A DNA stretch of 64,000 nt, from NCBI RefSeq assembly GCF_004010195.1, contig NC_057718.1:68914918-68978917 (forward strand). The letters run 5' to 3'. The notes beneath the pieces were generated by a model. The model saw only the letters and a list, made by a program, of their open reading frames with translations, did not search any database and was not told the DNA's origin. Of the stretch, positions 1 to 61,561 are shown piece by piece. The position numbers and the translations under genes were made by a program. The stretch is from Chiloscyllium plagiosum (lineage: Eukaryota). Positions within the stretch are counted from its first letter, which is position 1. Every line of letters starts with the position of its first letter.

Positions 1-172
1 CCCCCCTACCTTTTATCTTAGCTTGCTGGACACACTTTCCTCATTCCTGAAGAAGGGCTCATGCCCGAAACGTTGATTCTCCTGCTCCTAGGATGCTGCC
101 TGACCTGCTGCGCTTTTCCAGCAAGACATTTTCAGCTCTGATCTCCAGCATCTGCAGTCTTCACTTTCCCCT
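1..172 (+). mobile_element. 3' pseudo-LTR (pLTR) of Neptune-type Penelope-like element (family A) with hammerhead motif at 43-76
   Basis: CTGAAGA-A-GGGC(tcat)GCCC-GAAA-CGTT; the same sequence adjoins PLE RT at 3136-4035 and 16517-17760. Confidence 0.8.
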
Positions 173-254
173 CCATATAATATTATCTGGGTCTCTGAAT
201 TAACAGCCCACCAGCAATAATACCACTAGGCCATCACCTCTCCCTAATGGAGGG

Positions 255-1200
255 ATTGTTTGATCACCTTCAATGACAAGATCTACAAACAAATCAATGG
301 GACACCTATGGGATCCCAATATCAGAATTTTTAGCAGAAGCAGTTATGCAGAGGTTAGAATGAACAGCCCTTCCCATGATCTAGCCCAACCTTTGAGTCC
401 GTTATGTGGATGACACCTTTGTCATCATGAAATGCATCAAATTAGAAGAAACTCACAAACACATAAACAACATCCTTACTGGTCTAAAGTTCACCAAAGA
501 GGAAGAAAACTCAACTGACTCCCCTTCCTAGATTTCACAGTAGAAAGAAAAGCCAACAGAGAGCTGCAGACCAGCTCTACACACAGCTCTACAGACAGGA
601 AAGCTCTACACACTGAATAGATGCTCAACAATAGAAAGAGTCATCCCAACACCGACAAGAGGAACTGCATCAGAACAATATTTAAATGAGCCACAACACA
701 CTGCAGCACCCAGGAACTACCGAGAAGCTGAAGAAAAGCCCTACACAACGTATTCAGGAACAACAGATACACGATATGCGCTGTCTGCCAATTCCTGCAC
801 AACAGACGTAAACAAGAAGACACAACATGCCCAGAGACTCTAGCCACCCTGCCATACATCAAAGACATCTCGGAGATGACAACCAGACTACTCCAGCCCC
901 TAGGCATCATGGTAGCCCACAAACTTACCACCACACTGAAACCTCTCCTGATGAATTTAAAGGACCCCATACCAACAACCAGCAGAACAAACGTCATGCA
1001 CAAAATATCCTGCAAGGACTGCAACAAACATTATATTGGACAGATGGGCAGGAAACTAGCCACCAGAATACATGAGCACCAACTAGTCAACAAAAGGCAT
1101 GACCAACTATCACTGGTATTCATGCACACAGAAGAAGAGGGACACCAGTTCGACTGGGACAATACATCCATCCTGGACCAGGCTAAACAAAGACATGCAC
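255..1200 (+). mobile_element. Decayed Poseidon-type Penelope-like element (RT + GIY-YIG)
   Basis: YKQINGTPMGS and RYVDDTF RT motifs with stops; NVMHKISCKDCNKHYIGQMGRKLATRIHEH GIY-YIG-like. Confidence 0.85.
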
Positions 1201-1204
1201 GTAT

Positions 1205-1530
1205 CTGACAACATCCTGGAAAATCTCTTCTGAACCCTCTCCAGCTTGATAATATCCTTCATATAACTGGGTGACTAGAACAGGACATGGTATTCCAGAA
1301 GAGGCCTCACCGATCTCCTATACAACCTCAATATGACTTCCCAACTCCTTTACTCAAAGGACTAGCCATTTGGATACAGAATTGGCTCCAAGGTAGAAGA
1401 CAAAGGGTGGTGGAGCAGGGTTGCTTTTCAGACTGGAGGCCTCTGACCAGTGGTGTGCCACAAGGATCAGTGCTGGGTCCACTGCTTTTCGTGATTTATA
1501 TAAATGATTTGGATGTGAACATAGGAGGTA
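1205..1530. mobile_element. Rearranged CR1 LINE fragments
   Basis: [14 protein letters not shown]...[22 protein letters not shown] on +; 3'-part fragment on -. Confidence 0.75.
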
Positions 1531-3101
1531 TCTCTCCCATGTCCTGGGGTTCAACACCAGGACAACCTCCTTGATCTTTAAGGGGCTTTACCCTCTTTCT
1601 AGTTACCCTCTTCCTCTTAGTGTAGTTGTAGAATCAATTTTGATTATCCTTTACCTTATCTGCTAATGCTACCTGTATCCCCTGTTTGCCTTCCTAAGAA
1701 TGCCTCTACACTCGATATTGATTAAGAGATTCAATTGAACCAGTTTGTGTATATCCACCTCCATCCACCATGACTACTTCCATCTAGAAGTAAGAACTCA
1801 GAGCAAGAGTAGACCATCTGGCCCTTCGAACCTGCTTTGCCATTTCAATAAGTTCATGGCTGATCTTTTTGTGTCCTCAGCTTCACCTACCCGCTCTCTC
1901 ACCATAACCCCTAATTCCTTTATTGTTTTAAAAAAGTCTATCTTAGCTTTAAAAACATTCACTAAAGTAGTGTCAACTACACCCCTGGGCAGGGAATTGT
2001 ATCGATTCACAACTCTCTGGGTGAAGATGTTCCTTCTCAACTCAGTCCTAAATCTGCTCCGCCCTCTTGTCCTAGTTTCACCTGCCAGTGGACACATTTT
2101 CTCCACTGCTATCTTATTTATTCCCTTTGTAATTTTATGTATTTTTATAAGATCCTACCTTATTCTTCTAAATTACAATGAATATAATCCTAGACTTTCT
2201 CCTCAGTCTCTCCTCGTAAGCCAACCCCCTCAGCTCCAGAATCAATCTAGTGTACCTCCTCTGGAGACCAAAACTGCACGCACTACTCCAGGTGTGGCCT
2301 TGTCAGCACTCTGCTGCAACACAAGTTCCCTGCTTTTAAATTCAATCCCTTTAGCAATAGGAACAAATTTTATTTGCATTGCTATTTATTCATTGGACCT
2401 GCAGACCAACCTTCTGTGATTCATGCACAAGGACACCCAGGTCCCTCTGCACAGCAGCAGCTGCAGCTTTTTATCATTCAAGTAATAGCCATTTATTACT
2501 GTTACTCCTACCAAAATGAATGACTTCACATTTATTAATATTGTATTCCATCTGCCAGACCTTTGCCCAGATAATTTATCTATGTTCCTCTGCAAAGTTT
2601 CACAGTCCTCTGTACATTTTGCTCTGCTGCTCGTCTTAATGTCATCTGCAAACTTTGACACACTACATGTGGTCCCCAACTCCAAATCATCTATATAAAT
2701 TGTGAATAGCCAACCAGAATAGCACTCATTTATCCGCACTCTCTTTGTTTCCTGTTAGTCAACCAATCCTCTATCCATGCTAATACTTTACCAGTAATGC
2801 TGTGCATCTTTATCTTATGCAGCAGCCTGTTCATAGAATGATATCATAGAATCCCTATAGTGTGGAAACCAGCCCTCTGGCCCAACAAGTCCACACTGAC
2901 CCTGTAGAGAGTATCCCACCCAAACCTATTCCTCTACATTTACCACTGACTAATGCAGAGCTGAAAATGTGTGGCTGGAAAAGCGCAGCAGGTCAGGCAG
3001 CATACAAGGAACAGGAGAATCGACGTTTCGGGCATAAGCCGTTCTTCAGGAATGAGGAAAGAGTGTCCAGCAGGCTAAGATAAAAGGTAGGGAGGAGGGA
3101 C

Positions 3102-3135
3102 NNNNNNNNNNNNNNNNNNNNNNNNNNNNNNNNNN
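3102..3135. other. Assembly gap (N run)
   Basis: N bases. Confidence 1.
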
Positions 3136-3201
3136 ATATCAAAGTTGAAACTTTATTGCTGGAACAGCACAGCAGGTCAGGCAGCATCCAGGGAACAGGA
3201 G

Positions 3202-3237
3202 ATTCGACGTTTCGGGCACAGGCCCTTCTTCAGGAAT
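3202..3237 (-). ncRNA. Minimal type I hammerhead ribozyme motif (family A), intact
   Basis: ATTC-CTGAAGA-A-GGGC(ctgt)GCCC-GAAA-CGTC-GAAT: stem I, core, stem II, GUC site. Confidence 0.8.
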
Positions 3238-5053
3238 GAGCAGAGAGTGTTCAGCAGGAGAAGATAAAAGGTAGGGAGGAGGGACTTGGTGGAGGGGCGT
3301 TGGAAATGTGATAGGTGGAAAGAGGTCAAGGTGAGGGTGATAGGTCGGAGTAGGGTGGAGGCGGAGAGGTCAAGAAGAAGACTGCAGGTCAGGAAGGCGG
3401 TGCCGGGCTGGAGGGATTCGGCTGTGACAAGTTGGGGGGAGGGGGGATGAAGAAACTGGTGAGGTCCAAGTTCATCCCCTGTGGTTGGAGGGTTCCCAGT
3501 CGGAAGATAAGACGCTCCTCCTCCGACCGTCGGGTTGTTGTGGTTAGGTTGGGTCGGTGGGGGGTGTGGATCTGACAAGGGAGTCGCGGAGGGAGTGGTC
3601 TCTACGGAAAGCTGATAGGGGAGGGGAGGGAAATATATCCTTGGTGCTGGGGTCTGTTTGGAGGTGGCGGAAGTGACGGCGGATGATGCGCTGTACATGG
3701 GGATTGGTGGGGTGGTAGGTGGGGACCAGTGGGGTTCTGACCTGGTGGCGGTTGGAGGGGCGGGGCTCAAGGGCGGAGGAGCGGGAAGTGGAGGAGATGC
3801 GGTGGAGGGCATCGTTGACTACATCTGGGGGGAAATTGCGGTCCTTGAAGAAGGAGGCCATCTGGGTTGTACGGTTTTGGAACTGGTCCTCCTGGGAGCA
3901 GATGTGGCGGAAACGAAGGAATAGGGAATATGGGATGGCGTTTTTACAGGGTGCAGGGTGGGAGGAGGTGTAGTCTAGGTAGCTGTGGGAGTCGGTCGGT
4001 TTATAGTAGATGTCCGTGTCGATTTGGTCACCCGAGACTAATGCACCCAATCCACACATCCCTGAACACTATGGGCAATTTAGCATGGCCAATTCACCTA
4101 ACCTGCACATCTTTGGATTGTGGGAGGAAACCTACACAGACACAGGGAGAATATGCAAACTCCACACAGACAGTCACCCGAAGCTGGAGTCAAACCCGTG
4201 TCCCTGAGTCAGCAGTGCTAACCACTGAGCCAGTGTGCCGGTATAGTCCAGCACCTTGTCGAAGACCTTTTGGAAGTCTAGATACAACACATCTAATGGG
4301 TCCCCATTGTCCACTGTGCTCGTACTGTCTTCATAGAATTCCAAAAGATTAGTTAAGCATGACCTGCCTTTCATGAACCCATGCTGCGTCTGCCCAATGG
4401 GACAATTTCTATCTAAATGCCTTGCTATTTCATCCTTGATAACAAACTCCAGCATCTCCCCCACTACACAGGTTAAGCTAACCGGTCTATAATTGCTCAT
4501 CTTTTGTCTACCACCCATTTTAAACAGTGGCATGACATTTGCTGTTTTCCAATCTGCTGGAACTACCCCAGAGTTCAGTGAATTTTGGAAAATGACCACA
4601 AGTGCACTTGCTGTTTCTCCCGCCATATCTAGAAGGATAACGGCAAGAGGAACACAGGAACACCATCTCGCAAGTTCCCCTCCAAGCCAGTCATCATGCT
4701 GATTTGGAAGTATATTGCCTCCTTTCACTGTCACTAGGGGAGCATCCTGGAATTCCCACCTTGTCGGCATTGTGGGTCAACTCACAGGTGGACTTTCAGC
4801 AGTTCAAGAAGGCAATTCACCACCACCTTTTCAAGGGCAACTAGGAATGGAGAATAAGTGCTTGCCGACCAGAAGCATGCACATCCCACGAATGAATAAA
4901 AAAGAATAAAATTACAGGAAGAAAGGTATGAAGAAATGCTGTCAGGGTAGCTTTGACTATCACTGAGTAGTACTCTTGTACTAAACAGTCTCTTTAATTC
5001 CATTCTTCTAAATAACATTTATTGCTGTGGGAACATATATGGACCCTGGATAT

Positions 5054-5569: not shown

Positions 5570-6360
5570 TTCCATTTCTTTCACCTGGTCCACCTCCAAT
5601 GCCACCCTTCCTTTTCTCCAGTTCTGGGTGTAGGCTGTCAGGTGGTATAAGTCCACTGATTCCCACAACTACCCTGACTCTGTATCCTCCTACCCCATTC
5701 CTTTTCTGGACTCCTTTCCAGTCTCCAAGGTTCTTTGTCTCAGTTTGATGATGTCACTTTCTATATTTCTTCTTCCAATCAGTCTTCCTTTTTCCTTGAA
5801 TGCTGCCATCATAGCTGACAAGAGCTTTAACCATATCTGATCCATTTCCAAAGATATTGCTCTTACCCTCTTCTCTCACTCCTAGAACCATAAAAGGTTG
5901 CACTTGTCCTTCTTTTCCAAACCATGTGCCTCCATTTGAACAGATCATCCTCTGCCATTTCTGCCATCTCTAGTGTGATGCCACAGCCAAACACATTTTC
6001 TCTTCCTCATCCAACATTCCAAGGGGACTGTCCTTTTTGAAAAATCTCAATCACCATGAATACCTCCTTGCCTTCCCAAAGAAGCTCAACATCTGGTTTG
6101 TTACTTTCTTGCTTCTCCATATCCAAAACTTAAAACCCTCCTTGTACTTATTTTAAGTAAGCCTATTGTATTTACTGCTGACAATATGGTCTGTAATTTG
6201 TGGAAATTAAACAGATTGGGCAACCACTTTGATGAAAATCTCCATTTAATCTGCAAGGATGATCCTGGGCTTGTAATTGCTTGTTGATTTAATTCTCTAT
6301 CTCAGTCTCACTCCTTAGATCAAGGGCAAAGAAGTCAGTGAAGCTCAAAAGTACCTCATT
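5570..6360 (+). mobile_element. Old degenerate Neptune-type PLE remnant
   Basis: TATAAGTCCACTGATTCCCACAACTAC resembles the YKPTDSHSY-coding segment of the younger copies. Confidence 0.5.
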
Positions 6361-6367
6361 TCAATTA

Positions 6368-6558
6368 TGATTTGGAGATGCCGGTGTTGGACTGGGGTGT
6401 ACAAAGTTAAAAATCACAATGCACCAGGTTATAGTCCAACAGATTTATTTGGAAGCACTAGCTTTCGGAGCGCTGCTCCTTCATCTGGTGGTTGTCCAAA
6501 AGCTTGTGCTTCCAAATAAACCTGTTGGACTATAACCTGGTGTTGTGTGATTTTTTAA
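6368..6558. mobile_element. Fold-back PLE pLTR (family B) with degenerate hammerhead
   Basis: Inverted arms CACCAGGTTATAGTCCAACAG / CTGTTGGACTATAACCTGGTG; minus strand GATGA-AGGAGC..GCTCC-GAAAGCTA. Confidence 0.75.
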
Positions 6559-6626: not shown

Positions 6627-6749
6627 GTTCGGGAGTGTGGTGCTGGAAAAGCACAGCAGGTCAGGCAGCATCCGAGGAGCAGGAGAATTGACCTTTCGGG
6701 CATAAGCTCTTCATCAGGATTGAGGCATCTGTAGTCATCACTTTCTCCC
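6627..6749. mobile_element. Short inverted PLE pLTR (family A)
   Basis: TSD TGAGATATTGT at 6616-6626 and 6750-6760. Confidence 0.7.
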
Positions 6750-9300: not shown

Positions 9301-9641
9301 GTAAGTTGAATGGCTATTCTCCTCCTTGGATGCTGCCTGACCTGCTGTGCTTTTCCAGCACCACACACTCAACTCTGATCACCAGCATCTGCTGTCCTCA
9401 CTTTCTCCTAATTCAATAGTGGACAATGCTGAAATTTTAACACTTGACACATCAGAACAATAGACAGCATTTTTGTTCAAAATATGCTCCTGTCACACAG
9501 AATCTGCTGTGGCATGTACAGTTCCATTTATACACATGATATGTGGGTGTCACTGGCTGGCCAGCATTTGCTACCCATTCCTAATTGTTATAAATAACTG
9601 TTCAAAAGGGCAACTGTTTGAGATTCTATCAGGTTATTCCT

Positions 9642-9765
9642 TCACCTGATGAAGGATCAGTGCTTCAAAAGCTGGTGATTTCAAATAAATCGGTTGGACT
9701 ACAACCTGGTGTTGTGTGACTTCTAACTTGGACCACCCCACTCCAACGCTGGCACATCCACATCA
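9642..9765 (+). mobile_element. PLE pLTR (family B) with degenerate hammerhead
   Basis: CACCTGATGAAGGATCAGTGCTTCAAAAGCT... Confidence 0.65.
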
Positions 9766-9935
9766 GGATGAATGTGACTGAGGCTGATGTGCACACTGTG
9801 CTGTTGGTTTCCGGTTTGCCTCACCCTCTTTGTGGGAAATATCCAGACTTCAGTCAGTTCTCCTGAACATCTCATGACTTATAATTAAATGAACATTAAA
9901 GAAGCCATATAATAAGTGTTTTTTATTCTATCTAG

Positions 9936-10108
9936 AAACTGATGTGGGCCTCTGCTTATGCCCCTGACACGCCAATGATACATTTTGACTATCACCATTG
10001 TGTGAAAGGAGGGAAGGCGGAGAAGCTGCACTCATTGCTAAAACCTCAGCTGCAGGAACACTTGGAAAACTTTGGCTTCTTCACCAGTGGTGAGCAGATA
10101 TGTCCCTG
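9936..10108 (+). CDS. SYNJ2: Synaptojanin-2 internal coding exon (Sac1 domain), KLMWASAYAPDTPMIHFDYHH...GEQICP
   Basis: tctAG acceptor, GTGAGT donor; 173 nt, phase 0 to 2; translation resembles recalled SYNJ2 [21 protein letters not shown]. Confidence 0.92.
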
Positions 10109-10244
10109 GTGAGTCTTTAGAAGTTCTTATTCTATTTCCTTTTTCAGTGGTAAAATTATGAAACTGCATCAGTCAAGTAAAATTACAATTTGTTTTCCTT
10201 GCTGAAATTACACTATCTATTTAGTCTGGTTAACTAAAAGACTG

Positions 10245-10454
10245 AAAGAGTGTGGTGCTGGAAAAGCACAGCAGGTCAGGCAGTATTCGAGGAGCAGAAG
10301 AGTTGATGTTTCCGGCATAAGCCCTTCATCAGGAATGGCTTATGCCCGAAATGTTGACACTCCTGTTCCTCGGATGTTGCTTGACCTACTGTGCTTTTCC
10401 AGCACCACACTTCTTAACTCTGATCTCCAGCATCTGCGGTCCTCTCTGTCTCCT
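10245..10454. mobile_element. Fold-back PLE pLTR (family A)
   Basis: Inverted arms; diverged TSD TAACTAAAAGACTG / TGACTAAAAAACTG. Confidence 0.8.
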
Positions 10455-12501
10455 TGACTAAAAAACTGTTTAGGTGGCATGTCCTCAAAACGTATATTAA
10501 TACAATTAAAAGTAATAGAAATTAGTGCTTACAAAATGAGAGATCTATCTAATTTAAATGTTTAAGAATTTAGCTTCTTGTGGATATAACCATTTAATAA
10601 ACTGTTTGATAGATCCTTGTTGTGAGTCCTCCATTAGAGTTTGTGTGAAATAAATTAATGAGATGAGATGTGGGTGATATCTTTATTCTGATAGCTATAA
10701 TTTGCTAAATGTTAGGACTGCAGCAAGATTCATTTCATCTTCTAGTGGACTCCAGGTATAAGATAAATAGTCTTACAATTTGATGTAATTGTGGGAGAGG
10801 ATCCATATGGAAGGCTGTTGTGAGAAATAGTGAATACACACTTAAAATTCTGATCTTCATTCTAAAGCACAATGCCATTGATGTGGATATGTAAATTAGT
10901 AGTAAGTTTAGGTGATTTGGCCCCTTGAGTTTGTTTTGCTATTTGACAAGATCGTGGCTGATCTGACTGCGGTCTTAACTCTAAATTCCCTAGTGACCAT
11001 AATTGATTCCCTTGTTAGCCTAAAACCTATCTAAAAATATTTAATTATCCTACCTCCTTTACCTTTTGGGGATGGGAGGTCCATAGACTCATGACTTTTA
11101 GGAAAAAAAACTCAACTATTATCTCAGATGTCATGCTGGAAAAGAATTTTTTTTCATATTGCAACATGTTTTTGTGGAAAGGAAAAGGGATCTCTAATTC
11201 TGCTTTTCCTGCTTTATCACATTTTTTTAAACTTCCTTGTAATTAAAGTCAGTCTGACATTGGTTGCCTTCCTTTTCCCTCTTTTATTTGAATGTACGTA
11301 AGTTATGTACGTAGTCATCTCCTCTTTAAAGACCTCTTATTGTTTTGTTACATTTCCATTTGCCAGTCTTTGACTCCAATTTATCTGGGCCTTTTCAGTT
11401 TTCTGAAATTTGGTAGCCTCCAGTTTGTATTTTTATTTTAGATTGTGCCTTGTCATACTCCATACATTACCCAACTTAGATCACTACTGGCTAGATTCAC
11501 CATTTGACCCACTCTATTCCTCAGGATTACATCCAGCAATGTCACTTTCCATATTGAACAGTGACATAATAATCAAAAAAAGTTCACCAATATGCATTTC
11601 AAAATTTCTTCCTCGTTTGTCCTCAATCACACACAGTTCCATTTAAGTTCCTATTATCATAGTTCATGCATCCTAGTTTGCCTGAAAATCTGGGTCACTT
11701 TCTCCTCCTCACTATTTGATGGTCTGAGAAATACGCAAGTTTGAAATTGATCCTTGTTTGTTTCTTAACTGTAATCATTAACATCTAAGGGTATTTCCTT
11801 TTTCTAGTGTTGTGACACTTTATTTTAATCAAAATTGTTACTCCTTCCTTTTTTCCTTTCTCTTCATTCCTGATACCTTATACCCAGGAATATTAATAGT
11901 TCTATCCTTTTTTGAGCCAAGTCTCCATTATTGCCACTGCATTATATTTCCATCATTATTAACCTTTATTAACCACTCTTCCTCCATAAATTCACTCCAT
12001 ACCTGACCTTGAACTCTGCATTCTGTGATCTGAGCTATATCAGTAATATCCTGTTAATGTGTCTTTCTCTATGCTGTCTGTAGTTTTAAATTTTTCATTT
12101 TGGTGCCCAGTCTTCTGAATTATTTAATCCCCTTTCTCTCAGAATAAATTCAATAATCCAGCCTCCGCTGCTGCCTTGAGTAGTGAATTCCAAAGGTTAA
12201 TAACTCTTAAAAGAAGAAGTTTATTCTCTTTCCATCTCAAGTGGCAGGACAGTACCAATCTCTACTTCTGAATCTCTAGATGCAGAACCAATATTTTTCA
12301 GATTGCTCAGAAAAGTATAATATTGCTAAAATTTCACTGATATTATAAATTACAATACCACTGATAACCGTTTGTTTTTACATTTAATTTTTAGTCAGGC
12401 TTCCTGGTGTTATACAGTAATTGGAATTTGCAACCTCAAGACTGAATAATGTTCAATCTGTTCTGCAGAAGTAAACCATTAATTGCATCTGTTCTTTTAA
12501 G

Positions 12502-12583
12502 TCTGCAGTCTGGAGTGCTCAGAACAAATTGCCTTGATTGTCTGGATCGGACAAACAGTGTCCAGTCTTATGTGGCATTGGAG
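12502..12583 (+). CDS. SYNJ2: SYNJ2 exon with Sac1 catalytic CX5R(T) motif, [27 protein letters not shown]
   Basis: tttaAG / GTAATA; 82 nt, in frame with neighbouring exons. Confidence 0.95.
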
Positions 12584-12931
12584 GTAATAATTTTAATTTT
12601 TAAAGAAATTGAGACCAATTTTGAAGGAGATATTGTTGGAGAGCGCGTCTTGATAAAATAAAATAAAAATAATAAGAATAGCTTCTGCAACACCTTGAAT
12701 CTGTTCCAGCAACCAGTTGTATCATTGTTGATGTGTATCTGATCTCCATCAACTTGGTTCCATAACCATTAATTCCTCTTCCTTACAAACAACTATCAAT
12801 TCCAGTTGTTGGGCTGTCAATTAAAAATTGGAAGGTTCACTTGCTTTTTTGGGGAGAGAATATAATACAATGGATAAGAGCAGACTACTCGACCCTTCGA
12901 GCCGGCTCTGGCATTCAATAAAATATTGACT

Positions 12932-16270: not shown

Positions 16271-16516
16271 AGCATCCTGGAATCTTTTTTCCTCATTAGG
16301 TAATCCACTCATTCCAGGTAATAGTCTAGTAAACCTTCTCTGAACTGCTTCCAATGCATTAAGATCCTTCCATACGTATGGTGACCAGTACTGTACTCAG
16401 TATTCCAGATGCAATCTCACCAATGCTGCGGATAAGTGAAGCATGACCTCCCTACTCCTGCATTCAAATCTCTATGCAATAGATCATAACACTCTGTTAG
16501 GGCTATAGATCCATAG

Positions 16517-17762
16517 AGGAGAAAGTGAGGTCTGCAGATGCTGGAGATCAGAGCTGAAAATGTGTTGCTGGAAAAGCGCAGCAGGTAAGGCAGCATCCAG
16601 GGAACAGGAGAATCGACGTTTCGGGCAGAAGCCCTTCTTCAGGAATGAGGAAAGTTTGTCCAGCAGGTTAAGATAAAAGGTAGGGAGGAGGGACTTGGGG
16701 GAGGGGCGTCGGAAATGCGATAGGTGGAAAGAGGTCAAGGTGAGGGTGATAGGTCAGACTGGGGGGGGGGCAGAGAGGTCAGGAAGAAGATTGCAGGTTA
16801 GGAAGGCGGTGCTGAGTTCGATGGATTTGACTGAGACAAGGTGAGGNNNNNNNNNNNNNNNNNNNNNNNNNNNNNNNNNNNNNNNNNNNNNNNNNNNNNN
16901 NNNNNNNNNNNNNNNNNNNNNNNNNNNNNNNNNNNNNNNNNNNNNNNNNNNNNNNNNNNNNNNNNNNNNNNNNNNNNNNNNNNNNNNNNNNNNNNNNNNN
17001 NNNNNNNNNNNNNNNNNNNNNNNNNNNNNNNNNNNNNNNNNNNNNNNNNNNNNNNNNNNNNNNNNNNNNNNNNNNNNNNNNNNNNNNNNNNNNNNNNNNN
17101 NNNNNNNNNNNNNNNNNNNNNNNNNNNNNNNNNNNNNNNNNNNNNNNNNNNNNNNNNNNNNNNNNNNNNNNNNNNNNNNNNNNNNNNNNNNNNNNNNNNN
17201 NNNNNNNNNNNNNNNNNNNNNNNNNNNNNNNNNNNNNNNNNNNNNNNNNNNNNNNNNNNNNNNNNNNNNNNNNNNNNNNNNNNNNNNNNNNNNNNNNNNG
17301 GAAGAGATGCGGTGGGGGGCATCGTCGACCACGTCGGGGGGGAAATTGCGGTCCTTGGAGAAGGAGGCCATCTGTGTTGTACGTATTTTGAACTGGTCCT
17401 CCTGGGAGCAGATGCGGCGGAGTCGAAGGAATTGGGAGAATGGGATGGCGTTTTTACAGGGGGCAGGATGGGAGGAGGTGTAGTCCAGGTAGCTGTGGGA
17501 GTCGGTCGGTTTGTAATAGATGTCCGTGTTGATTCGGTCACCTGAGATAGAAATAGAAAGGTCGAGGAAGGGGAGGGAGGAATCTGAGACTGTCCAGGTG
17601 AATTTGAGGTCGGGGTGGAAGGTGTTGGTGAAGTGGATGAACTGTTCAACCTCCTCGTTGCACGAGGAGCACGAGGCGGCGCCGATACAGTCATCGATGT
17701 AGCGGAGGAAAAGGTGGGGGGTGGGGCCAGTGTAGTTGCGGAAGATGGACTGTTCCACATAT
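16517..17762 (-). mobile_element. Neptune-type PLE (young; RT open up to the gap) with pLTR and hammerhead at 16611-16646
   Basis: FLRYIDDCIG...FHPDLKFTW...LPFLDL...YYKPTDSH...SQFLRLRRICS; CTGAAGA-A-GGGC(ttct)GCCC-GAAA-CGTC. Confidence 0.9.
16847..17299. other. Assembly gap (N run)
   Basis: N bases. Confidence 1.
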
Positions 17763-17764
17763 AA

Positions 17765-39767: not shown

Positions 39768-41099
39768 GTTAGTAACTGGTACTTACAACTAAATTTGAAC
39801 TTGTTAAATTGTATTTAGATTTCATAAAGTAAAACATCACTATTTTACATTTTTTAAATGATTTCAATCACTTTCTACGCCTTCATGCTTTGCTGACATT
39901 CCTAAACCTTTCCTTCTCTTTAAACTAACATTCATTTCTAAAACTACCTCTTCATTTTACTATCGTTCATGGCCATTCTGCTTCTACCCTTCCAAATTTT
40001 AGATTAAGACATTTATGCATGTATCTGTATATCACTCTGTTTCACTTTTGAGCCATTTCATTTTGCATTTGTTCCTAGGAAAAACGATTTTCCCTGAGTC
40101 ATTTACAGGCCTCTTCAAACTCCTACATATGAGCCTATGACGTTTTATTCAGTGCAATACATCAGCTGTCAATTTACTGAACTAGTTGCCCGTCTCCATA
40201 TTCACACTTGTTTCTCGCAAAATCTTAATTTGCAGTTGTCCCGGTTGTTTTCTCCTGATGTTCACTTTTCAAATCTAAGGCATGAAAATTTGAACATATT
40301 TGCCGGACAAATAATTTAGCAATCTGTCACTTGATCTCAATGGATTCTGGCAGAAACCTCTGCTGGTGGTGTTGAGCTTGAAGGTGGGGGAGGGAACTTA
40401 ATTAGGTGAGATGGTGGTATACTGAACCCTGCCACCTTCACCAGAAATAAATTCTGGGCATTAAAGTGCCTGAGGACCAATTGGATTTCATATGTGGTCA
40501 GGGTGTCACTATGGAATATGCAGCAGGGATTGACTGCATAATTTAATCAACATAAATGTAAATGTGGATTTATTTACATTTTAGAAGTGCTATTTTATGA
40601 TTGGGGTCTCAACTGGCTGTTATAAGGGGAGACATTTGAATGTTTAAAGGTTGCATATAGTATTTTATTCTAATTTGAATCATTCCTGTTCTACAAAGAC
40701 CCCAATCTGGTGAATTCTGAACTCACATTCATTTCTGAGGTAGTTTAACATTCAGTACACAAAAGGACATCCCTCTTGCTTGGTCATCCAGACCTGGATC
40801 TTGAGATTGAATTAGGGCAGTAAATGTTGAAAATGTATTTAACAGCTTATACGGACAGTTGCCTAATGTGGCAAGCTAAGTTTTCAGTTGCCAGTAGAGA
40901 TGGGCAGTTGCAGATCATATTCCTGAAAGATATTGATGTCCTTATCATTGTGGACCCAGTATCTTTGGAAAATGATGCAGTTTTCAAAAGGAGGGCAAAG
41001 AGTTAATAGAATCCCTACAAAGGGGAAGCAGACCGTTTGGCCCATCAAGTCCGCACTGACCCTCCGAACAGCATCCCACTATTGATAGACTTCCTTAAG

Positions 41100-41510: not shown

Positions 41511-41513
41511 GGT

Positions 41514-43214: not shown

Positions 43215-43490
43215 TGGCACGGCATTCTAACCAGAACTCTTATCAACAAACGCATTGGACCCCATCTACCACCCCCTGAGAAAAAGAACAGGAAGTGACA
43301 TCACCACAGGAAATGACATCGCCAACCCAGACATATAAATAGAAAGCAGGAAACATCAGCAGTGCTTTGTCTGGAGGCTCACTGATGTTACCTATAATGA
43401 TGACGTAACGTCTGAAAATGAACCTTCAGCTCAGTGAGCAAACCTACGTCCAGAACCGCAACCTGAGTGACAAAATTTCTCAAAACCTTA
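43215..43490 (+). mobile_element. Poseidon-type PLE pLTR (decayed hammerhead)
   Basis: Homologous to 31800-32080 and 45820-46086. Confidence 0.75.
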
Positions 43491-43751: not shown

Positions 43752-44043
43752 TCTGAACTGATTTCTTCTGCAGATACCAGGATCTCTCTCTCTCTCACCT
43801 CTCTGCAGCGCCTCAACTAACACCTCAAGAGGAACTTTGGAGAACTTTGCAGCTGTCCATTGATGCCTTCTCATTCCAAAGTTACCCTTCTGCAAACTCT
43901 TTTGCACCCAGATGTGGAGATCAGAGATGGAAATGTGTTGCTGGAAAAGCGCAGCAGGTCAGGCAGCATCTAGGGAACAGGAGAATCGACGTTTCGGGCA
44001 TTAGCCCTGAAGATTTCTGAACTGATTTCTTCTGCAGATACCA

Positions 44044-44083
<40 letters not shown>

Positions 44084-44192
44084 TCTCTGCAGCGCCTCAA
44101 ATAACACCTCAAGAGGAACTTTGGAGAACTTTGCAGCTGTCCATTGATGCCTTCTCATACCAAAGTTATCCTTCTGCAAACTCTTTTGCACC
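43752..44192. repeat. Direct duplication (43752-43908 and 44016-44192) with (CT)n, separated by a family A pLTR fragment
   Basis: Near-identical copies differing mainly by 20 bp of CT repeat. Confidence 0.9.
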
Positions 44193-44367
44193 ACCTCCTC
44201 TGTCACAGGCAAGCCCAGCCTAGGCTGCTCAAAGAGTTTCTAGAATCTGCTCCCACATACTCCTGGCACCACTAAAATTGGATCCCCCAGGCCAATTTAA
44301 AATTGTTTTGAGTCACTGAGTGATACAGCACAGAATCGCGACACAGGAATATTCTAGTCATCGGGAT

Positions 44368-44788
44368 CCTAAACCTCACCTCACCTCCCTCCAAGGCCCC
44401 AATGGATCCTTCCATATCCGTCTCAAATTCACCTGCACCTCCACATACATCATTTACTGTATCCGCTGCACCCCATGTGGTCTCCTCTACATTGGGGAGA
44501 CAGGCCGCCTACTTGCGGAACGTTTCAGGGAACACCTCTGGGACACCCGCACCAGCCAACCCAACCGCCCCATGGCTGAACACTTTAACTCCCCCTCCCA
44601 CTCCACCAAGGACATGCAGGTCCTTGGCTGCCTCCATCGCCAGACCCTGGCCAAATGACGCCTGGAGGAAGGGCGCCTCATCTTCCGCCTCGGCTCATTC
44701 CTGAAGAAGGGCTTATGCCCGAAACGTCGATTCTCCTGCTCCTCGGATGCTGCCTGGCCTGCTGTGTTTTTCCAGCACCACACTTTTC
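44368..44788 (+). mobile_element. Neptune-type PLE GIY-YIG + pLTR with intact hammerhead at 44697-44732
   Basis: FTCTSTYIIYCIRCTPCGLLYIGETGRLLAERFREH; CTGAAGA-A-GGGC(ttat)GCCC-GAAA-CGTC. Confidence 0.9.
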
Positions 44789-45269
44789 ATCCCCAATTCA
44801 TCAATCGTATTACAGCGAATTTGCATTAACTAAACATTCTAGCAGAATGACCTGTACTTTCCCATTTATTTGCTCCTTATCTGCATGTATATTCATTTCA
44901 GTTAACCTGCTTAGGCATGTTATGACAAATTGACGGGGCAGTTGGAACTTGAATCCTGTCCTGTTGGCCTAGAGGTAGGGATGCAATCACTGCACTACAA
45001 GAACCCCTGTCCATGACTGTGAATTTATTTAGCCTCATTCATTACATGCTGACAATCACTCTTTGCATTTGTCAGCTTTCTTCATTTAAGTTGACATTCA
45101 TGGATATAACTTTCAATCTTTTAATTGTGTGGTTATTTTGTATAATCTGTTGAATTTGAATTTTGTCTACAAATTACTATATTTTGTTCTCCATGCTCTT
45201 AGTGGGATAATTAAAATCATACTTCATTAAATTTTCTAAATGAGCTGTTTTCAAATCTAACCAATAGCT

Positions 45270-46086
45270 GAGTGAGTTTTGAGAAGATTTGTAGCTCAGG
45301 TTGAAGTTCCAGATGTAGGTTTGCTCGCTGAGCTGGAAGGTTCATTTTCAGACGTTTCGTCACCCTACTAGGTGCCATCTTCAGTGGGCCTTCAGCAAAG
45401 CACTGCTGATAATTCCTAGTTTCTATTTATATGTTTGGGTTTTTTTGGGTTGGTGATGTCATTTCTTGTGGTGATGTCATTTCCTGTAGTGAGGTCACTT
45501 CCCGTTCTTTTTCTCAGAGAGTGGTAGATGGGGTCTAACTCGATGTGTTTGTTGATAGAATTCTGGTTGGAGTGCCATGCTTCTAGGAATTCTTGAGCGT
45601 GTCTTTGTTTGGCTTGTCTTAGGATGGATGTGTTGTCCCAGTCGAAATGGTGTTCTTCCTCATCCGTATATAAGGATATTAGTGAGAGAGGGTCATGTCA
45701 TTTTGTGTCTCACTAGTATCCTTACATACGAATGAGGAAGGACACCACTTCGACTGGGACAACAACGCATCCATCCTAGGACAAGCCAAACAAAGACACG
45801 CATCAGAATTCCTAGAAGCATGGCACTCCAACCAGAACTCTATCAACAAACACATCAAGTTATACCCCATCTACCACCCCCTGAGAAAAAGAACAGGAAG
45901 CGAGTTCACTACAGGAAATTACATCACCACAAGAAATAACATCATCAACCCAAAAAAACCCAAACATATAAATAGAAACCAGGAATTATCAGCAGTGCTT
46001 CGCCGGAGGCCCATTGAAGATGTCACCTAGTAGGGTGACGAAATGTCTGGAAATGAACCTTCCAGCTCAGCAAGTAAACCTACATC
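45270..46086. mobile_element. Palindromic Poseidon-type PLE insertion
   Basis: About 380-bp inverted arms; TSD CTAACCAATAGCT at 45257-45269 and 46087-46099; hammerheads at 45348-45387 (-) and 46011-46050 (+, mutated). Confidence 0.9.
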
Positions 46087-46853
46087 CTAACCAATAGCTA
46101 TTGTCTCTTCAGCTATTTTTCACCTACTGACATCCTGGGAGGTATTGGTGGTAGTAACATTCAACTAGTAATCCAGAGGGCTAAGCTAATGCTCCAAGGA
46201 CATCAGTTCAAATCTTGCCATGGCAGTTGATGGAATTTGAATTAAGGAAATAAATATGGAACATAAAACTAGTATCAATAATGGTGGGCATGTCGACTGT
46301 CATCAGTTGTTGTTAAAACAAAAGTCCATTTGGTCCATTAATGCCTTGTGGAAATGAAACTGCCATCATTACCCAGTGTCACCTACATGTAACTCCAGAC
46401 CAAAAGCAATGTGATTGACATTTAACCACCTCTGAAAGATCGAGTAATCCACTTCAAGGGCATTTAGGAATAGGAAACGACTACTGACCTTGCCAATAGT
46501 GCCCATGTTCCATGAAAGAATATTTTAAAACATCTTGCACCCGTGATACTCTCTGACCACCATATCCATTGGTGACATTAGGTAGAGGTCCCACCACTAG
46601 CTTGTGAATATTCTGGCTGAAAGATGAGGGCAGTCAATTCATAAACTCAAGACTAAGATCAATAGATTCCTGTGCATCAGGAGAACTGAGATATGGAGAT
46701 ACTGTCGGAAATGTGAGTTTTTTTTAAAGTTCTGTGATCTTAACAAGTTGCCAGGATTGCTCCAGTTTTTTTTTCTGGTCTTAATAAGTAAAACAAATGA
46801 GGAAATGGGAAATAAAATGTAAATAGAAAATCTGTTTCATTTTTCTTTTGCAG

Positions 46854-47046
46854 AGAGGTTGCCGTGGATAGGGTGAAGACTGGGATGGGTGGAAAGACTG
46901 GGAACAAAGGAGCAGTAGCACTTCGTCTGCAGTTTTACAGCAGCACACTCTGCTTCATCTGTGCCCATCTGACAGCTGGACAGTCACAAGTGAAAGAAAG
47001 AAATGAAGATTATAGAGAAATCATGCAGAAACTCAGCTTCCCAATG
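46854..47046 (+). CDS. SYNJ2: SYNJ2 exon, [15 protein letters not shown]...[18 protein letters not shown]...SFPM
   Basis: ttgcAG / GTATTT; 193 nt, phase 2 to 0. Confidence 0.95.
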
Positions 47047-47061
47047 GTATTTATTCTTTCT

Positions 47062-47295
47062 TGAGTTGAAACTTTATTGCTGGAACAGCACAGCAGGTCA
47101 GGCAGCATCCAGGGAACAGGAGACTCGACGTTTCGGGCACAGGCCCTTCTTCAGGCCCTTCTGCTCATTCCTGAAGAAGGGCCTGTGCCTGAAACGTCGA
47201 GTCTCCTGTTCCCTGGATTTTGCCTGACCTGCTGTGCTGTTCCAGCAATAAAGTTTCAACTTTGATCTCCAGCATCTGCAGACCTCACTTTCTCC
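47062..47295. mobile_element. Young fold-back PLE pLTR (family A) next to a SYNJ2 splice donor, two hammerheads
   Basis: About 92-bp near-perfect arms; TSD TATTTATTCTTTCT at 47048-47061 and 47296-47309. Confidence 0.92.
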
Positions 47296-48972
47296 TATTT
47301 ATTCTTTCTGCACAGTTACGTTTTAGTCAATTAGCATGCTGTTTACCTCTGGAACCAGATTTAAATGTAGCCCAGGAATTAAGATGATGGATTCTCCATT
47401 TTGATTTTGTTTAAATTTTTTCTCTGCTCTTGGTGAGTCATATAAAAATGAGTTTAGTTTGTTCCAGCATGTTCTTATTGTACATGTATATTTTGCACAA
47501 AACTCTGAAAGAGCCGTTCAGTGCCAATTATTGAAATCAGGATTGCTAGTACAGAAATTGATAATGTTCAAAGGATACATCAAAGCAGGGTAAGAAAACA
47601 ACCAGAAGTTAGGAGAAAATTTTAATATCACGACCATAACTTGTTTAATTAAAATTTATTAGATTATAAGGCATGATGAAGAAGTATTGATATGAAAAAT
47701 AAATTGGCAGATCAAGCATTGGAACAGGAATGGAAAAAAGTTAGGGGAGAAAAACGTTATGTTTTTGAAGAGAAATAACAAGTGTATATGCAAAGTTACG
47801 AATTGGAATTGGAAATGAAAATGATACGGGGAAATGATAACCTGTATTAATTTAATAACTATAACCTATAATGTGTCTTCACATTAAGAAGGTGAGAACG
47901 AGAAAGACTGTGGATGGATTTGATGATGCGCTATTTTAGAATGTATTATGGGCATTGTGCAATATCAACATTTATTATCTATTTTTAATTGCTCTTCAGA
48001 AGGTAGTAATGAACCAACTATTTCAAAACACTGTAACCTGTGTAGAAAGATTCCTATACAGTGCTATAAGATAGGGAATTTATATGACTTTGACCCAGCA
48101 ACAGTGAGAGAAAAGTGAGAAATTCCGTTCTGGGGAAAGGAATTTGGGACACGTAAAGAGCCTAGGAGGTGCTGCCCTTCTAAGTGATAGATGCAATCAG
48201 TTGGGAGGTGCTGTTGAAAATGACTGAGTTGCTATAGTGGAATAAAGGAACTGGGGTTTCTTTACAAGATTGGATTACTGAAGCTTGTGCATTCTACATG
48301 GAGCAAGGGAAATTGAGAGGAGATTTGACAGAAATGGGCAAGATTAGACCAAGTTTTTGAAAGGTAGGCACAGAAAGCTATTTATTAGCTAATGAAGAAA
48401 GTATTAGGAGACATAGATTTAGGATTTTAAGTAAAGAGATGTAAACAGAATATGAGGAAGAACTTTATTCAGTGGGTGATAATGAAATCGGACTTATAGT
48501 ATTAACAAAAGCAATGAATAATTTCAAATGAATATTGGGTGGGTACTTGAAAGAAAGAAATTAAATGGCTTTGAGCAGAGAAGTGGACTGACTGGATTGC
48601 TTTGTGGTGAGCCAGCATACACTCAATTGGTTGAAGGCCCGCCTTAGTGCCCTAAGTAATTTGATGACTCTAGGTGCAGTCTTTTTGAGTCTGTTATGCC
48701 ACTTGGTGAGATTTTGGGAGATCTGACCTGACACCACATACTTGCCTGTGTCCCATATCATTTGATATGTTTGACTAATAAAAATCTGTGCTTCTCAGTT
48801 TTAAGAATAATGGTTGATCCAGCAGTAACTGCTGCTTGCAGAAAAATGTTGCAGACGTCTACCACCCTGTAGAGTCATAGAGATGTACATGTTTTGATTT
48901 GCTCTGACTAGAGCTTGTCTGATTGGCCTAAGTGTAGTGTTTTGGATATGACCTTAGCCTTGTCCACACTAA

Positions 48973-52110: not shown

Positions 52111-52181
52111 CTCAATGTTAGGCTTTGAGGCTTTCAGGACAGAGTCTGCAAATGTTGCTGGTTTGACTGGTCTTGAATCTA

Positions 52182-52336
52182 GGCGAAAGTGGGTACTGCA
52201 GACGCTGGAGATTAGAGTCAAGATTAGCGTGGTGCTGGAGAAGCACAGCAGGTCAGGCAGCATCCGAGGAGCAGGAAATGTCGATTTTTCTGCTCCTTGG
52301 ATACTGCCTGACCTGCTGTGCTTTTCCAGCACTACT
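52182..52336. mobile_element. Fold-back PLE pLTR (family A)
   Basis: Perfect 15-bp TSD CTGGTCTTGAATCTA at 52167-52181 and 52337-52351. Confidence 0.85.
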
Positions 52337-52504
52337 CTGGTCTTGAATCTATCGTTTCACTGAAGACATGAAAAGGTATGTTACTTCTTTAACATTCCAT
52401 TCCCTTCACCTGAGTGACATCCTATTAGACTAGTAATTGCTTAGAAAATTTCTATCCTATTTCAATTTGATTACATAATATTTGCTGTTCATTTATTGTG
52501 ACAG

Positions 52505-52663
52505 GGAAGAAATGTTTTCTCCCATGACTATGTATTCTGGTGTGGAGATTCAAACTTCCGCCTTGATCTTCCACATGAAGAAGTCCTTCACCACATTAAA
52601 GGACAGGACTGGAAAACTCTTCAGGCCTATGACCAATTGCAACATCAGAAGACTGAGAATAAA
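52505..52663 (+). CDS. SYNJ2: SYNJ2 exon with 5-phosphatase motif 1, [21 protein letters not shown]...YDQLQHQK
   Basis: gacAG / GTGAGT; 159 nt, phase 0-0. Confidence 0.95.
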
Positions 52664-52854
52664 GTGAGTTAAAAAAAAACAAAGAGAAGTAAGAAAAAGT
52701 AATTTATTTTCCCAGGGCAGTATTTTTATCCTTTGTAACAGTCATTGCTCATAGATAAAAACTGAAATTGCTGAAAAAGCTCAGCAAGTCTGGTAGCTTT
52801 TGTGGAAAGAAATCAGAGTTAACATTTTGAGTTGAGTGACCCTTTCTCAGCAAC

Positions 52855-52929: not shown

Positions 52930-52980
52930 TGCGTGCTATATCTGAGCTTGGCTATGTGTCTGTAAGGTCACGTTCATTTG

Positions 52981-53650: not shown

Positions 53651-54268
53651 GGAAACAGCAGGATGCGTGATTCCTCCTTGATTTATAATGATAACCTAGT
53701 AAAATGTATTTGTAACTTAATACAAAAACGTATGTGCCCCAATGTCTGATTTTATGTTATGAGGAGGAGTACATTATCAAGGGTTATTTGCAATGTATCT
53801 GTGCTCTTGGTTTTAGCGAGTGAATTCAAGTCTAATATTTCTACAAGTATGTATTTGTTGCTTACTGCCACTGTTATGAACAATTTTTGCACATTAATGC
53901 AAAAACCAGTTTCAGAAGGGGAAGTAGACGGGAGAATGTTCAAGGCCCATACATTAACTTGAGGATAGGTTCACGAACTTTATTTTGAATGATTGGAGGA
54001 TTTTTTTTCTGGATTTTGCATTTCCAAGCTTTTCAGTGATGCACATGATGTGATGTCAAATTGATAATTTATGGGTGTAATACAAAAATGAAATATGGGG
54101 ATTCCAGGAGATATTAACATGAACTCACATAAGGCAAGGCCATCGTACAGATTCGAGCTCCCTGTATTTGTGGCTTGGTGCAGTCAGGAGTGTTGGAGGA
54201 AGGAAGCTGCTAAAGTCAAGTGATACAAAGGTGTCTGAAAGAATGAGGAGCAAGAACGTTATACCCAA

Positions 54269-54480
54269 CAAAAGCAGAAGTTGCTGGAAAAGCTCAGCAG
54301 GTCTGGCAGCATTTGTAAGGAGAAATCAGAGTTAACGTTTCAGGTCCAGGGACCCCTTTCTTAGGTCACCGGATCTGAAACATTAACTCTGGTTTCTCTT
54401 CACAGATGCTGCCAGACCTGCTAAGCTTTTCCAGCAACTTCTGTTTTTGTTTCTGATTTACAGCATCTGCAGTTCTTTCG
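54269..54480. mobile_element. Fold-back PLE pLTR (family E)
   Basis: Inverted arms; TSD GAACGTTATACCCAA / GAAGATTATACCCAA. Confidence 0.8.
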
Positions 54481-58840: not shown

Positions 58841-58929
58841 TTTAAGTTGTTTATAAGTCAATGACCAACTCCTTATTTCTGCCACCTGATCCAAATTGCT
58901 TTGTAATGCTGGAGTGCTGGATTGTTTTT

Positions 58930-59570
58930 TAATTTACTCGTGAGACATGGGTGTAGCTGGCTGGACCAGCATTTATTGTCCATCCATATTTATATAGTGG
59001 TGGTGAACTGCTGCTTTGAACTGCTGAAGTCCATGCGTTGCAGGTACACCCACAATGCCAGGATTTTGACCCAGGGACACTGAGGGAACAGCGGTATATT
59101 TCTAAGTGAGGATGGTGAATAGATTGGAGGGGAACTTGCAAATATATATTCCCACATATCTGCTGTTCTTGTCCTTCTAGATGGGAGTGGTCATGAGTTC
59201 TGAATATACTGTCTCAGGATTTTTGGCAAATTTCTACAGTGTATCTTGTAGATATTACACATTGCTGCTACAGAGTGTTGGTGGTGAAGGGAGTGCAAGT
59301 TTGTGGTTATGGTGCCAATCAAGCAGACTGTTTTGTCCTGTTTGCTATCAAGCTTCTTGAGTGCTGTTGGATCTGCAAGTAGAGAGTATTCCTGCACACT
59401 CCTGATTTGCAGATGGTGGACAGGCTTTGGGAAGTCAGGATATGAGTTACTTGATGCTGCATTCCTAACCTTCCTGGCAAATTAATTTGAGTTTCCGATT
59501 AATGGTAATCTGAGAATGTTGATAGCGGGAATGTCAAGGGGCAGTGGCTATCTTGTCTCTTATTGGAGAC
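58930..59570 (-). mobile_element. CR1/L2-group LINE 3' fragment (same family as 50015-52110)
   Basis: LKKLDSKQDKTVCLIG..LHSLHHQHSVAAMCNIYK. Confidence 0.7.
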
Positions 59571-61412
59571 ATTAAACATGATGAAGACATCGGAACTGCT
59601 CCCAGGGAGTATACTGCGATTTTGCATGAATTATCACAACTGTAATGGGAGGAATATGCTGATAATTAAGTCCCAATAAAGTACTCTTTAAAGAGAGTAC
59701 TGCTGTCATTAGTGCTACTATCAAGTATAAAAGGAATGTCACTAGGCTTCTTTAATTAACTTAAGACATATTTATTAGTAACAAAACCTATTCTCACTAA
59801 ATTGGAGATAACTACTCATTAACATCTAAGGTATGATCCTCAGTTAAAACTGTAATGTCCTTCATCCCACAGACATGCACTTTCTCACATGAAAATGATA
59901 TGTCTTTACAAAGATAGTATTAAAAAGGCAAAAGAGTTAAAAAAAATCCTATGGTCCAAAGTCTAGAAATAAACAATAAAATGTGATAACTCCTCAAGTC
60001 TGCTGAAATTTTCTGTTGACAAAGCTGAATCACTGACAGTTGTACCTTGATGATAACTATTCAGTCTGAGTCCAAGCAACTTGGGTTTGAGTTGTTGCAA
60101 ATGATCAGCTCGTAGTACTTAAAAAATATTAGCTTTTGAAAACTCTATTAGGTTCCCAGTAGTGATTTCCGAGGAACCAGACTTTAGGAGAGAGGTTGTG
60201 ATTTCAGGGGTGCCTTCTCGACTTACTGATTCTGGGTTTGAAAAACAGAATTCTAAAACCAGAGAAAGTTGATAGGCCACATTTAGCATAGACCCTAACC
60301 CCCTCAAAACACCTCTCAAAACCAGTTTTCTTGTACTCCAGTAGCTATATAATAAACCTAACTTGTTATTTCCTTGCTTTGCTCAGCTACTTCTGCGAAA
60401 TCATTTGTTTCCAGAAAATTCCAGGTGCCTTACAATATATAATAAACGTTTGACATTAGAAATGGGAGGTGGGTGCCCACCCATGAACTGTTGAACCCAT
60501 TTCCAAGAAATCACATGCTCAATGTTCAGTTCAGAAATTGTCCAAGTAATTCACGCTTACTTTGATGTTGTCCTTAAATTATATTCCCAATACAAACTCC
60601 TCTTGTCGTTGCATACCAGCTGTGCATTGTTAGAATGTTAATGAGACCCCCATTAATTTGGTAGTCGTTGGATTGTCGCAAGCATGCAATTGATAATGCC
60701 CTGTACTTGTGGGAAGCCAGTCAGGATGTAATATGACTACCAATCCATTCTTGCTATTGTAGAGGGAGTTAGTAAAGACTCACTTCCTGCCAAGCAACCC
60801 ACCTGTAACACGCCTCCTATGTCTACACGCAACAACTTCGAGACCCTTGAAATAGCAACTTAGGTGAAGATTTTACTGGGTTCTGTGCTTTGGCTGATAG
60901 CCAGGAGAGTGTCAGGGCATGGATGGATAACAACAAGTGGGGAGTTGGCAAATCCAACACTTTGCCACCCCTATTGCATTTTAACAGCGTTGGGAAAGTT
61001 GGCACTTCTGCCCATTAGCCAATTGAAAGCCTTAAATTGCTAATCTAGTGTCATTTAAGAATCTTCCAGTGCTGCTGGTTGGCATTTTGTGATATGGTGA
61101 GACAGCCTGGTAAATTACTAGTTTAAGAGATGAGTTACCCTGTGATGTGAACTCTATCCACCTGCCTTGGACACTAATCTTTTTATACCTCAGGCTAATA
61201 AAAGTCTAACGGTCTTAAATTTAACATTATTAATTCTGCTTACATCTACTGTCTTTTGTGGGAGAACATTCCACACCTCCAGTACTCTGTGCTTGGGCTT
61301 GATCTGAGGTTATGTCACCTTGTCCTGTCTCTCCATCAGAAAAGGTTTCTAATAACCTTTCAAAATCCTAAAAATGTCAACCAAGTCATCCTCTGGACTG
61401 TTGCAAATATAA

Positions 61413-61561
61413 ACTGAAAATGTGTTGCTGGAAAAGCGCAGCAGGTCAGGCAGCATCCAAGGAACAGGAGAATCGACGTTTCGGACATAAGCCCGTCTTC
61501 AGCCCTTTCCAGCAACACATTTTCAGCTCTGATCTCCAGCATCTGCAGCCCTCACTTTCTC
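61413..61561. mobile_element. Fold-back PLE pLTR (family A)
   Basis: TSD CTGTTGCAAATATAA / CTGTTACAAATATAA. Confidence 0.85.

Follow-up and report, generated by a model that had tools for sequence, protein, structure and literature searches.

What becomes of a self-cleaving ribozyme motif once retroelements have carried it into the introns of a host gene: does it go on cutting the RNA in which it lies, or does it decay there? The question is raised by a 64,000-nucleotide stretch of the genome of the shark Chiloscyllium plagiosum (contig NC_057718.1 of assembly GCF_004010195.1, positions 68,914,918-68,978,917; hereafter the window), in which a preliminary description made from the sequence alone placed about 20 hammerhead motifs of Penelope-like elements (PLEs) within introns of the synaptojanin-2 gene, SYNJ2. 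We conclude, with a probability of roughly 0.88, that these are minimal type I hammerheads from the pseudo-long terminal repeats (pLTRs) of about four PLE families and that those within SYNJ2 introns are probably inert debris undergoing neutral decay. The motif is as common on either strand in the other genes tested, so the copies are likely leftovers rather than a switch that cuts host RNA.

Does the window in fact lie within SYNJ2? Ten plus-strand exons between 9936 and 62297 are matched in tblastn by a shark synaptojanin-2-like protein (P0001), to which they are closer than to a synaptojanin-1; for the exon at ~29003-29191, identity is 69-97% to shark synaptojanin-2-like proteins (8 of 26 matches) and 48-50% to those of synaptojanin-1 type. 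With P0001 as the query, more exons were found from 68,800,436 to 69,032,401 of the same contig (G000:C9). Because the gene thus spans 68.80-69.03 Mb, the entire window is intragenic, and the intronic setting first proposed for the motifs is borne out. The exons for residues ~998-1135 were matched only on small unplaced contigs (G000:C146, C85939 and C97125), one exon twice, the likely reason being an assembly gap or haplotigs.

How many hammerheads are there, and how many are intact? We used a descriptor modelled on the minimal hammerhead (min-HHR) described in metazoan PLEs by Cervera and De la Pena (2014; PMC4209133): CUGANGA or UUGANAA, one extra base, a helix II of at least 4 bp, GAAA, a palindromic 15.1-16.1, H17, and a helix I of at least 2 bp. 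It replaced a looser version that gave four matches, one with a spurious helix III. All 19 coordinates in the preliminary description carry the motif claimed for them or its reverse complement, eight on the plus strand (47, 9643, 25014, 28227, 31968, 44697, 46011, and 47167) and 11 on the minus strand, opposite to SYNJ2 (3020, 3202, 6455, 16611, 23915, 30845, 45348, 47123, 52820, 54330, and 61470). Only six of the 19 pass the descriptor (C3 at 47+, 3233-, 16642-, 31971+, 44701+, and 47171+), and none of the five listed family B copies does. With three family C copies—the U3:A8 variant, listed earlier without coordinates and located at 29982-, 30192-, and 30471+—all of which pass, the window holds nine intact motifs, five of them sense to SYNJ2. 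Among the copies absent from the earlier list are four of family A (6717-, 10332-, 18367+, and 44008-) and one of family D (43384+). BLAST with four family references found 36 pLTR ends, of which the 27 with a recognisable motif were aligned. The original figure of about 20 is therefore too low for ends and too high for intact motifs, although the presence of PLE hammerheads of about four families, the U3:A8 variant included, in SYNJ2 introns was correct. Chance origin can be rejected, as neither 200 dinucleotide shuffles of the window nor the reversed patterns gave a single match.

The motifs resemble the published min-HHR closely. In all families one further base separates position 9 from 10.1; the 10.1-11.1 closing pair is G-C in 102 of 140 A, 39 of 61 B, and 13 of 22 D copies and mostly G-T in the remainder; and the palindromic 15.1-16.1 stretch, without a loop 3, reads ACGT in A, C, and D and AGCT in B. 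PMC4209133 likewise describes the core boxes, the extra base at 9/10.1, G10.1-C11.1, a palindromic 15.2-16.2 lacking loop 3, the presence of several families in one genome, copies that for the most part stand alone, pairs on opposite strands separated by 100-700 bp, and a U3:A8 variant (in Schistosoma). Shark family A is shorter than the Schistosoma form, with a 4-bp helix II and, for the most part, a helix I of 2 bp plus a mismatch. A search of the window against Rfam gave no match at the gathering score, and the 13 matches at E<=5 include no hammerhead family; those to miRNA families were rejected, being below the gathering score and located on PLE fold-backs.

How abundant is the motif beyond this locus? 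In the 3.56-Gb assembly, exact patterns matched 48,357 times for family A, 17,812 for B (helix I omitted from the pattern), 2,014 for D (helix II unconstrained), and 1,237 for C, 69,420 in total, and the reversed controls never matched. A sample of five genes, SYNJ2 and four CUB-domain genes (1.342 Mb + 0.431 Mb; 1.77 Mb), contains 87 descriptor-passing motifs and 545 pLTR ends, or one intact motif per 20 kb and one end per 3.3 kb. If these five large genes are typical, extrapolation gives ~175,000 intact motifs and ~1.1 million pLTR ends genome-wide. The corresponding counts in PMC4209133, made with a different descriptor, are ~4,000 in the coelacanth and ~9,000 in Xenopus. No shark PLE hammerhead was reported in the literature searched, which left out most subscription journals and repeat databases, and in supplement file 2 of PMC4209133, as searched, there was no match for shark, Callorhinchus, Squalus, or Leucoraja. 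The novelty here may thus be one of scale, at an extrapolated ~175,000 intact copies.

Which elements do the motifs come from? The PLE fragment at 3547-4068(-) had 82,940 first-look candidates genome-wide, and the 150 that were scored comprised its own locus and others at 86-92% identity. Two of seven long-frame copies of family A that were fetched (L053 and L058) have frames of 893 and 749 amino acids, with RVT_1 over its cut-off and GIY-YIG just under it, and in both an A motif lies ~160-180 nt 3' of the reverse transcriptase (RT) and GIY-YIG endonuclease (EN) frame in the same sense. Another two (L054 and L055) have no intact motif, but consist mostly of N. Counting only the ends that extend to the 5' side of the motif, PLE protein is matched no more than 900 nt upstream of 25 of 148 in family A, 10 of 25 in D, 2 of 66 in B (one of the two being the locus of the query itself), and 1 of 10 in C. 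The motif thus lies in the pLTR of an RT + GIY-YIG element in families A and D, with weaker evidence for B and C. A CX2-5CxxC linker between RT and EN distinguishes Neptune and is shared with Nematis (PMC8557442); family A has such a linker (C-x4-C-x2-C in L053 and L058) and the D fragments have none, which points to a Neptune-like family A and a Penelope/Poseidon-like family D, clade names that follow from the linker motif alone. Family C shares A's downstream flank at ~77% but differs in its U3:A8 core, its helix I (AGCT/AGCT), and its helix II. We also noted that the 5' part of the 893-residue frame (L053:5499-6016) is a 120-nt tandem repeat of about four copies, and that one family A stub (L001, G000:C1:39818-42850) lies beside frames that by eye resemble retroviral or LTR-element pol.

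The ends of the copies suggest how the motif came to be so widespread. In the 1.34-Mb sample, 3' ends are bimodal, at +80-95 and +124-126 in family A and at +84-91 and +119-124 in family B, ~35-40 nt apart, in agreement with the two initiation sites and the tail reported for PLEs in PMC11167929. Reverse transcription of the element RNA would accordingly start ~55-100 nt 3' of the hammerhead cleavage site, so that nearly every insertion, however short, would carry the motif, often twice as an inverted pair. The shark copies share with EN+ PLEs (PMC8557442 and PMC11167929) the order of RT and C-terminal GIY-YIG, 5' truncation, partial tandems, inverted truncated copies, and a one-sided tail of 30-40 bp; the last two are visible in the bimodal 3' ends and in the insertion at 45255-46100. 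They differ in that the family A motif lies in the 3' UTR, whereas the Anolis Poseidon ORF begins inside stem II (PMC11167929). The 5' ends of family A cluster at -8 to -1 of C3 (76 of 156), with a peak at -4, the 5' edge of helix I rather than the cleavage site, and family B shows a weaker pile-up. Accumulation of 5' ends at the cleavage site itself, which would indicate cutting in vivo, is weak, with 11 of the 156 A copies beginning at +28 to +33.

Is the ribozyme fold under selection, and where? Pairs were counted per family by script, MAFFT not having aligned the families by structure. Covariation of the stems, as originally claimed, holds between families, where helices I and II differ yet stay paired, with core and palindrome retained. 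Inside single families the only cases are pair 3 of helix I in B (CG 45, TA 7, TG 4; n=61) and pair 3 of helix II in D (CG 9, TG 9, TA 3; n=22); helix II of family A has no compensatory pairs in 140 copies, 93 of which have T-T at pair 3 of helix I. The covariation between families and the swap from C3:G8 to U3:A8 suggest that selection on the fold acts in active source elements, where the motif, by analogy with published systems, may work as a dimer or with the element's own protein. After insertion, by contrast, CpGs and core bases are lost equally on both strands. CpG transitions are the commonest changes, and core mutation is similar in sense and antisense copies (A, 41/734 vs 39/797; B, 20/341 vs 24/327; D, 2/77 vs 4/165; all p>0.5).

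A cost to the host from cut pre-mRNA would be expected to show as a depletion of intact motifs on the sense strand. All pLTR ends are evenly split, with sense:antisense counts of 201:207 in the 1.342-Mb sample and 70:67 in the 0.431-Mb sample. Intact motifs show no sense-strand depletion across the five genes (42:26, p=0.068, and 9:10; pooled 51:36, p=0.13).

Several observations weigh against reading the copies as inert debris. At the density of the other four genes, 18 pLTR ends would be expected in the window and 63 in SYNJ2; the observed counts are 36 (Poisson p=1e-4) and 89 (p=0.001), both p values being inflated by clustered insertions and by the selection of this window. Non-CpG core positions are less mutated than the flanks in family A (4.0% vs 6.1%, p=0.003) and family B (4.1% vs 6.8%, p=0.014; for D, p=0.07), a difference that subfamily variation together with ascertainment could explain; a core slightly spared yet mutating at the same rate on both strands fits selection in the source elements and neutral decay after insertion. 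The sense excess of intact motifs in the first sample gave 0.033 in Fisher's test against the rest, and was rejected after the 431 kb of fresh sequence, counted with the hypothesis fixed beforehand, failed to reproduce it. The strand of the four CUB-domain genes, moreover, was assigned from domain matches only. A LINE (long interspersed nuclear element) used as an orientation control likewise shows no antisense bias (38:25 and 5:7); the strand test therefore has no positive control, and modest selection could be missed.

Could particular sense copies nevertheless pair into dimeric hammerheads in the SYNJ2 pre-mRNA, cut it, and alter its splicing or output? We consider this highly improbable. 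The window offers five descriptor-intact sense copies, and two of these, 44701 (as 5' strand) and 47171 (as 3' strand), 2.47 kb apart, could form four helix I pairs and a 4-bp ACGU helix III; in 1.34 Mb, only three pairs of intact motifs from one family share a strand and lie within 5 kb of each other, and this is one of them. Their one-site dimer, however, has a predicted equilibrium energy of -13.4 kcal/mol, equal to that of two free monomers (-8.2 plus -5.2), and they lie in different introns. Folded in context, with the same equilibrium treatment, four of six sense copies are predicted to be paired outside the motif at 0.78-0.97 (44701, 0.78; 47171, 0.92; 30471, 0.96; 46014, 0.97): 47171 with its own inverted copy, in a hairpin of 92 bp (-190.9 kcal/mol, z -24), 44701 with an antisense copy ~690 nt upstream. 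The remaining two are largely free. Of these, 31971 (0.01) has no contiguous helix I pair with any other intact sense copy, and 47 (0.24) is separated by >44 kb from the window's other intact sense copies of family A, though one more (L060) lies ~2 kb upstream of the window. Cross-family dimers were rejected, their helix I having 0-1 bp, and published dimers are weak even at high Mg2+, the monomer being inactive (PMC4209133). The proposal that 31968, 44697, and 47167 act as dimers in the pre-mRNA is thus unsupported: two are predicted to be buried in hairpins, the third has no compatible partner, dimerization brings no energy gain, and the five genes bear no strand signature. Sense copies, on these models, would mostly be masked by an inverted partner or lack a compatible neighbor. 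The other close same-strand pairs in the window, 3049/3233 (184 nt) and 29982/30192 (210 nt), are antisense to SYNJ2; the latter is the window's best natural dimer candidate.

Might the copies instead be silent alone and armed in trans by PLE protein, for example in the germ line, with occasional cuts across many host pre-mRNAs as a by-product? The hammerhead of an Anolis PLE cleaves only when PLE protein is present (PMC11167929), the intronic shark copies retain the 3' flank where reverse transcription appears to start, and family A has both long open RT-EN frames (749-893 residues) and very many close copies. No strand bias indicates a cost, Anolis RNA-seq has no reads ending at the site, and protein-assisted cleavage was dispensable for insertion in vitro (PMC11167929); we regard this explanation as improbable. 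Equally improbable is its boldest form, in which one of the densest ribozyme loads in a vertebrate (~1 intact motif per 20 kb, about half of the intronic copies sense) consists of stubs that Penelope protein arms, so that bursts of element activity cut pre-mRNAs, that of SYNJ2 among them, genome-wide. Cutting of host RNA, if true, would give the copies far greater importance.

A third possibility is that inverted pairs affect the host through long double-stranded RNA hairpins rather than catalysis, for instance through editing or through splicing near the exon at 46852-47046. The 92-bp fold-back (47046-47265) begins ~17 nt past the 3' end of that exon, and 201 of 408 pLTR ends have an opposite-strand partner within 300 nt. 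Such effects, which we think unlikely, would be compatible with the copies being inert debris as ribozymes, and secondary to that explanation.

How do these copies compare with other dispersed hammerheads? Like the intronic hammerheads of amniotes (RECK, DTNB, and others; PMC6155905), they are type I motifs within introns. The amniote ribozymes are few, highly conserved, and similar to those of retroelements, whereas the shark motifs are high-copy, minimal, on both strands, and decaying; a domesticated hammerhead of the RECK type, low-copy and sense only, is ruled out by tens of thousands of copies in both orientations. Non-LTR retrozymes share PLE-related type I hammerheads and high copy number (up to 120,000 in the axolotl) and have been found in one chondrichthyan sampled, but they form head-to-tail arrays of short units, whereas the shark copies are dispersed or inverted (PMC7229834; bioRxiv 10.64898/2026.07.22.740005 for these and for the chondrichthyan). 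With only two 2-copy tandems in the window (184 and 210 nt), identity as retrozymes was rejected.

These results extend the published PLE min-HHR motif to sharks. They also offer a natural collection of minimal-hammerhead mutations on a very large scale, with four families, an estimated 175,000 intact copies, and a core swap to U3:A8 that separates C from the related family A. That introns can hold such a load on their sense strand at no visible cost agrees with the idea that these ribozymes depend on a partner or on the protein of the element.

Table 1. PLE insertions and SYNJ2 exons in the window (HHR, hammerhead ribozyme).
Feature	Position	Strand	Remarks
Family A pLTR end	41..174	+	min-HHR (C3 at 47) passing descriptor; U17, 2-bp helix I plus mismatch
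5'-truncated Neptune-like PLE, two tandem pLTR ends	2939..4050	-	87% to family A ORF; HHR C3 at 3233 intact (4-bp helix I); 3049 with broken helix II closing pair
Family B inverted pair	6349..6555		Core mutated (U4A) or truncated
Family A end	6634..6724	-	Decayed HHR at 6717
Family B end	9641..9770	+	G12A
SYNJ2 exon	9936..10108	+	Residues 317-373 of P0001
Family A inverted pair	10230..10463		Decayed
SYNJ2 exon	12503..12589	+	tblastn bounds
5'-truncated family A PLE	16513..17809	-	HHR C3 at 16642 passes descriptor; 487-N gap at ~16845-17330 hides middle of element
Family A inverted pair	18282..18500		Decayed
SYNJ2 exon	23209..23350	+	
Family B inverted pair (23946-, 25014+)	23862..25123		Flanks GIY-YIG-like fragment 24467-24790(-); both cores mutated
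Family B end	28189..28324	+	C3U
SYNJ2 exon	28636..28794	+	tblastn bounds
SYNJ2 exon	29003..29192 (end about)	+	97% to shark synaptojanin-2-like, 50% to synaptojanin-1
Family C (U3:A8) cluster	29842..30569		Tandem antisense 29982, 30192 (210 nt apart), inverted sense 30471; all pass descriptor
E-like decayed fold-back	30731..30930		C-related flank
5'-truncated Poseidon-like PLE (GIY-YIG fragment)	31451..32087	+	Family D HHR (C3 at 31971) closed by G10.1-U11.1
SYNJ2 exon	39070..39154	+	
SYNJ2 exon	39625..39774	+	tblastn bounds
Family D end	43335..43489	+	Core deleted
Family A inverted insertion	43890..44796		Antisense end 43890-44008, GIY-YIG fragment 44374-44715(+), sense HHR C3 at 44701
Family D inverted insertion	45255..46100		Arms of 325 nt, tail on one side, AACCAATAGCT as flanking direct repeat; HHR 45384- with helix II mismatch, 46014+ with C3U
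SYNJ2 exon	46852..47046	+	Between HHR copies 44701 and 47171; tblastn bounds
Family A fold-back	47053..47301		Arms of 92 nt around a 14-nt loop; sense HHR (C3 at 47171, closed by G-U) predicted to lie inside the hairpin
Family A fold-back	52178..52338		Without HHR core
SYNJ2 exon	52505..52660	+	tblastn bounds
E-like decayed end	52755..52849	-	
E-like inverted pair	54254..54474		Decayed
Family A end	61401..61568		HHR C3 at 61502(-) missing its helix I 5' strand; with a short inverted piece of tail
SYNJ2 exon	62136..62297	+	tblastn bounds

What else lies in these introns? Another abundant repeat, ~330 nt long and headed by a tRNA-like sequence, likely a shark short interspersed nuclear element, is present at 5050-5374, 8130-8458, 12924-13275, 32257-32569, 33292-33614, 41513-41857, 48975-49246, and 52976-53569. 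Fragments of LINE reverse transcriptase lie at 4177-4776(-) and 57167-57592(+), with RVT_1 scores below the cut-off, and 58176-58601 is a 213-nt tandem duplication at 98% identity.

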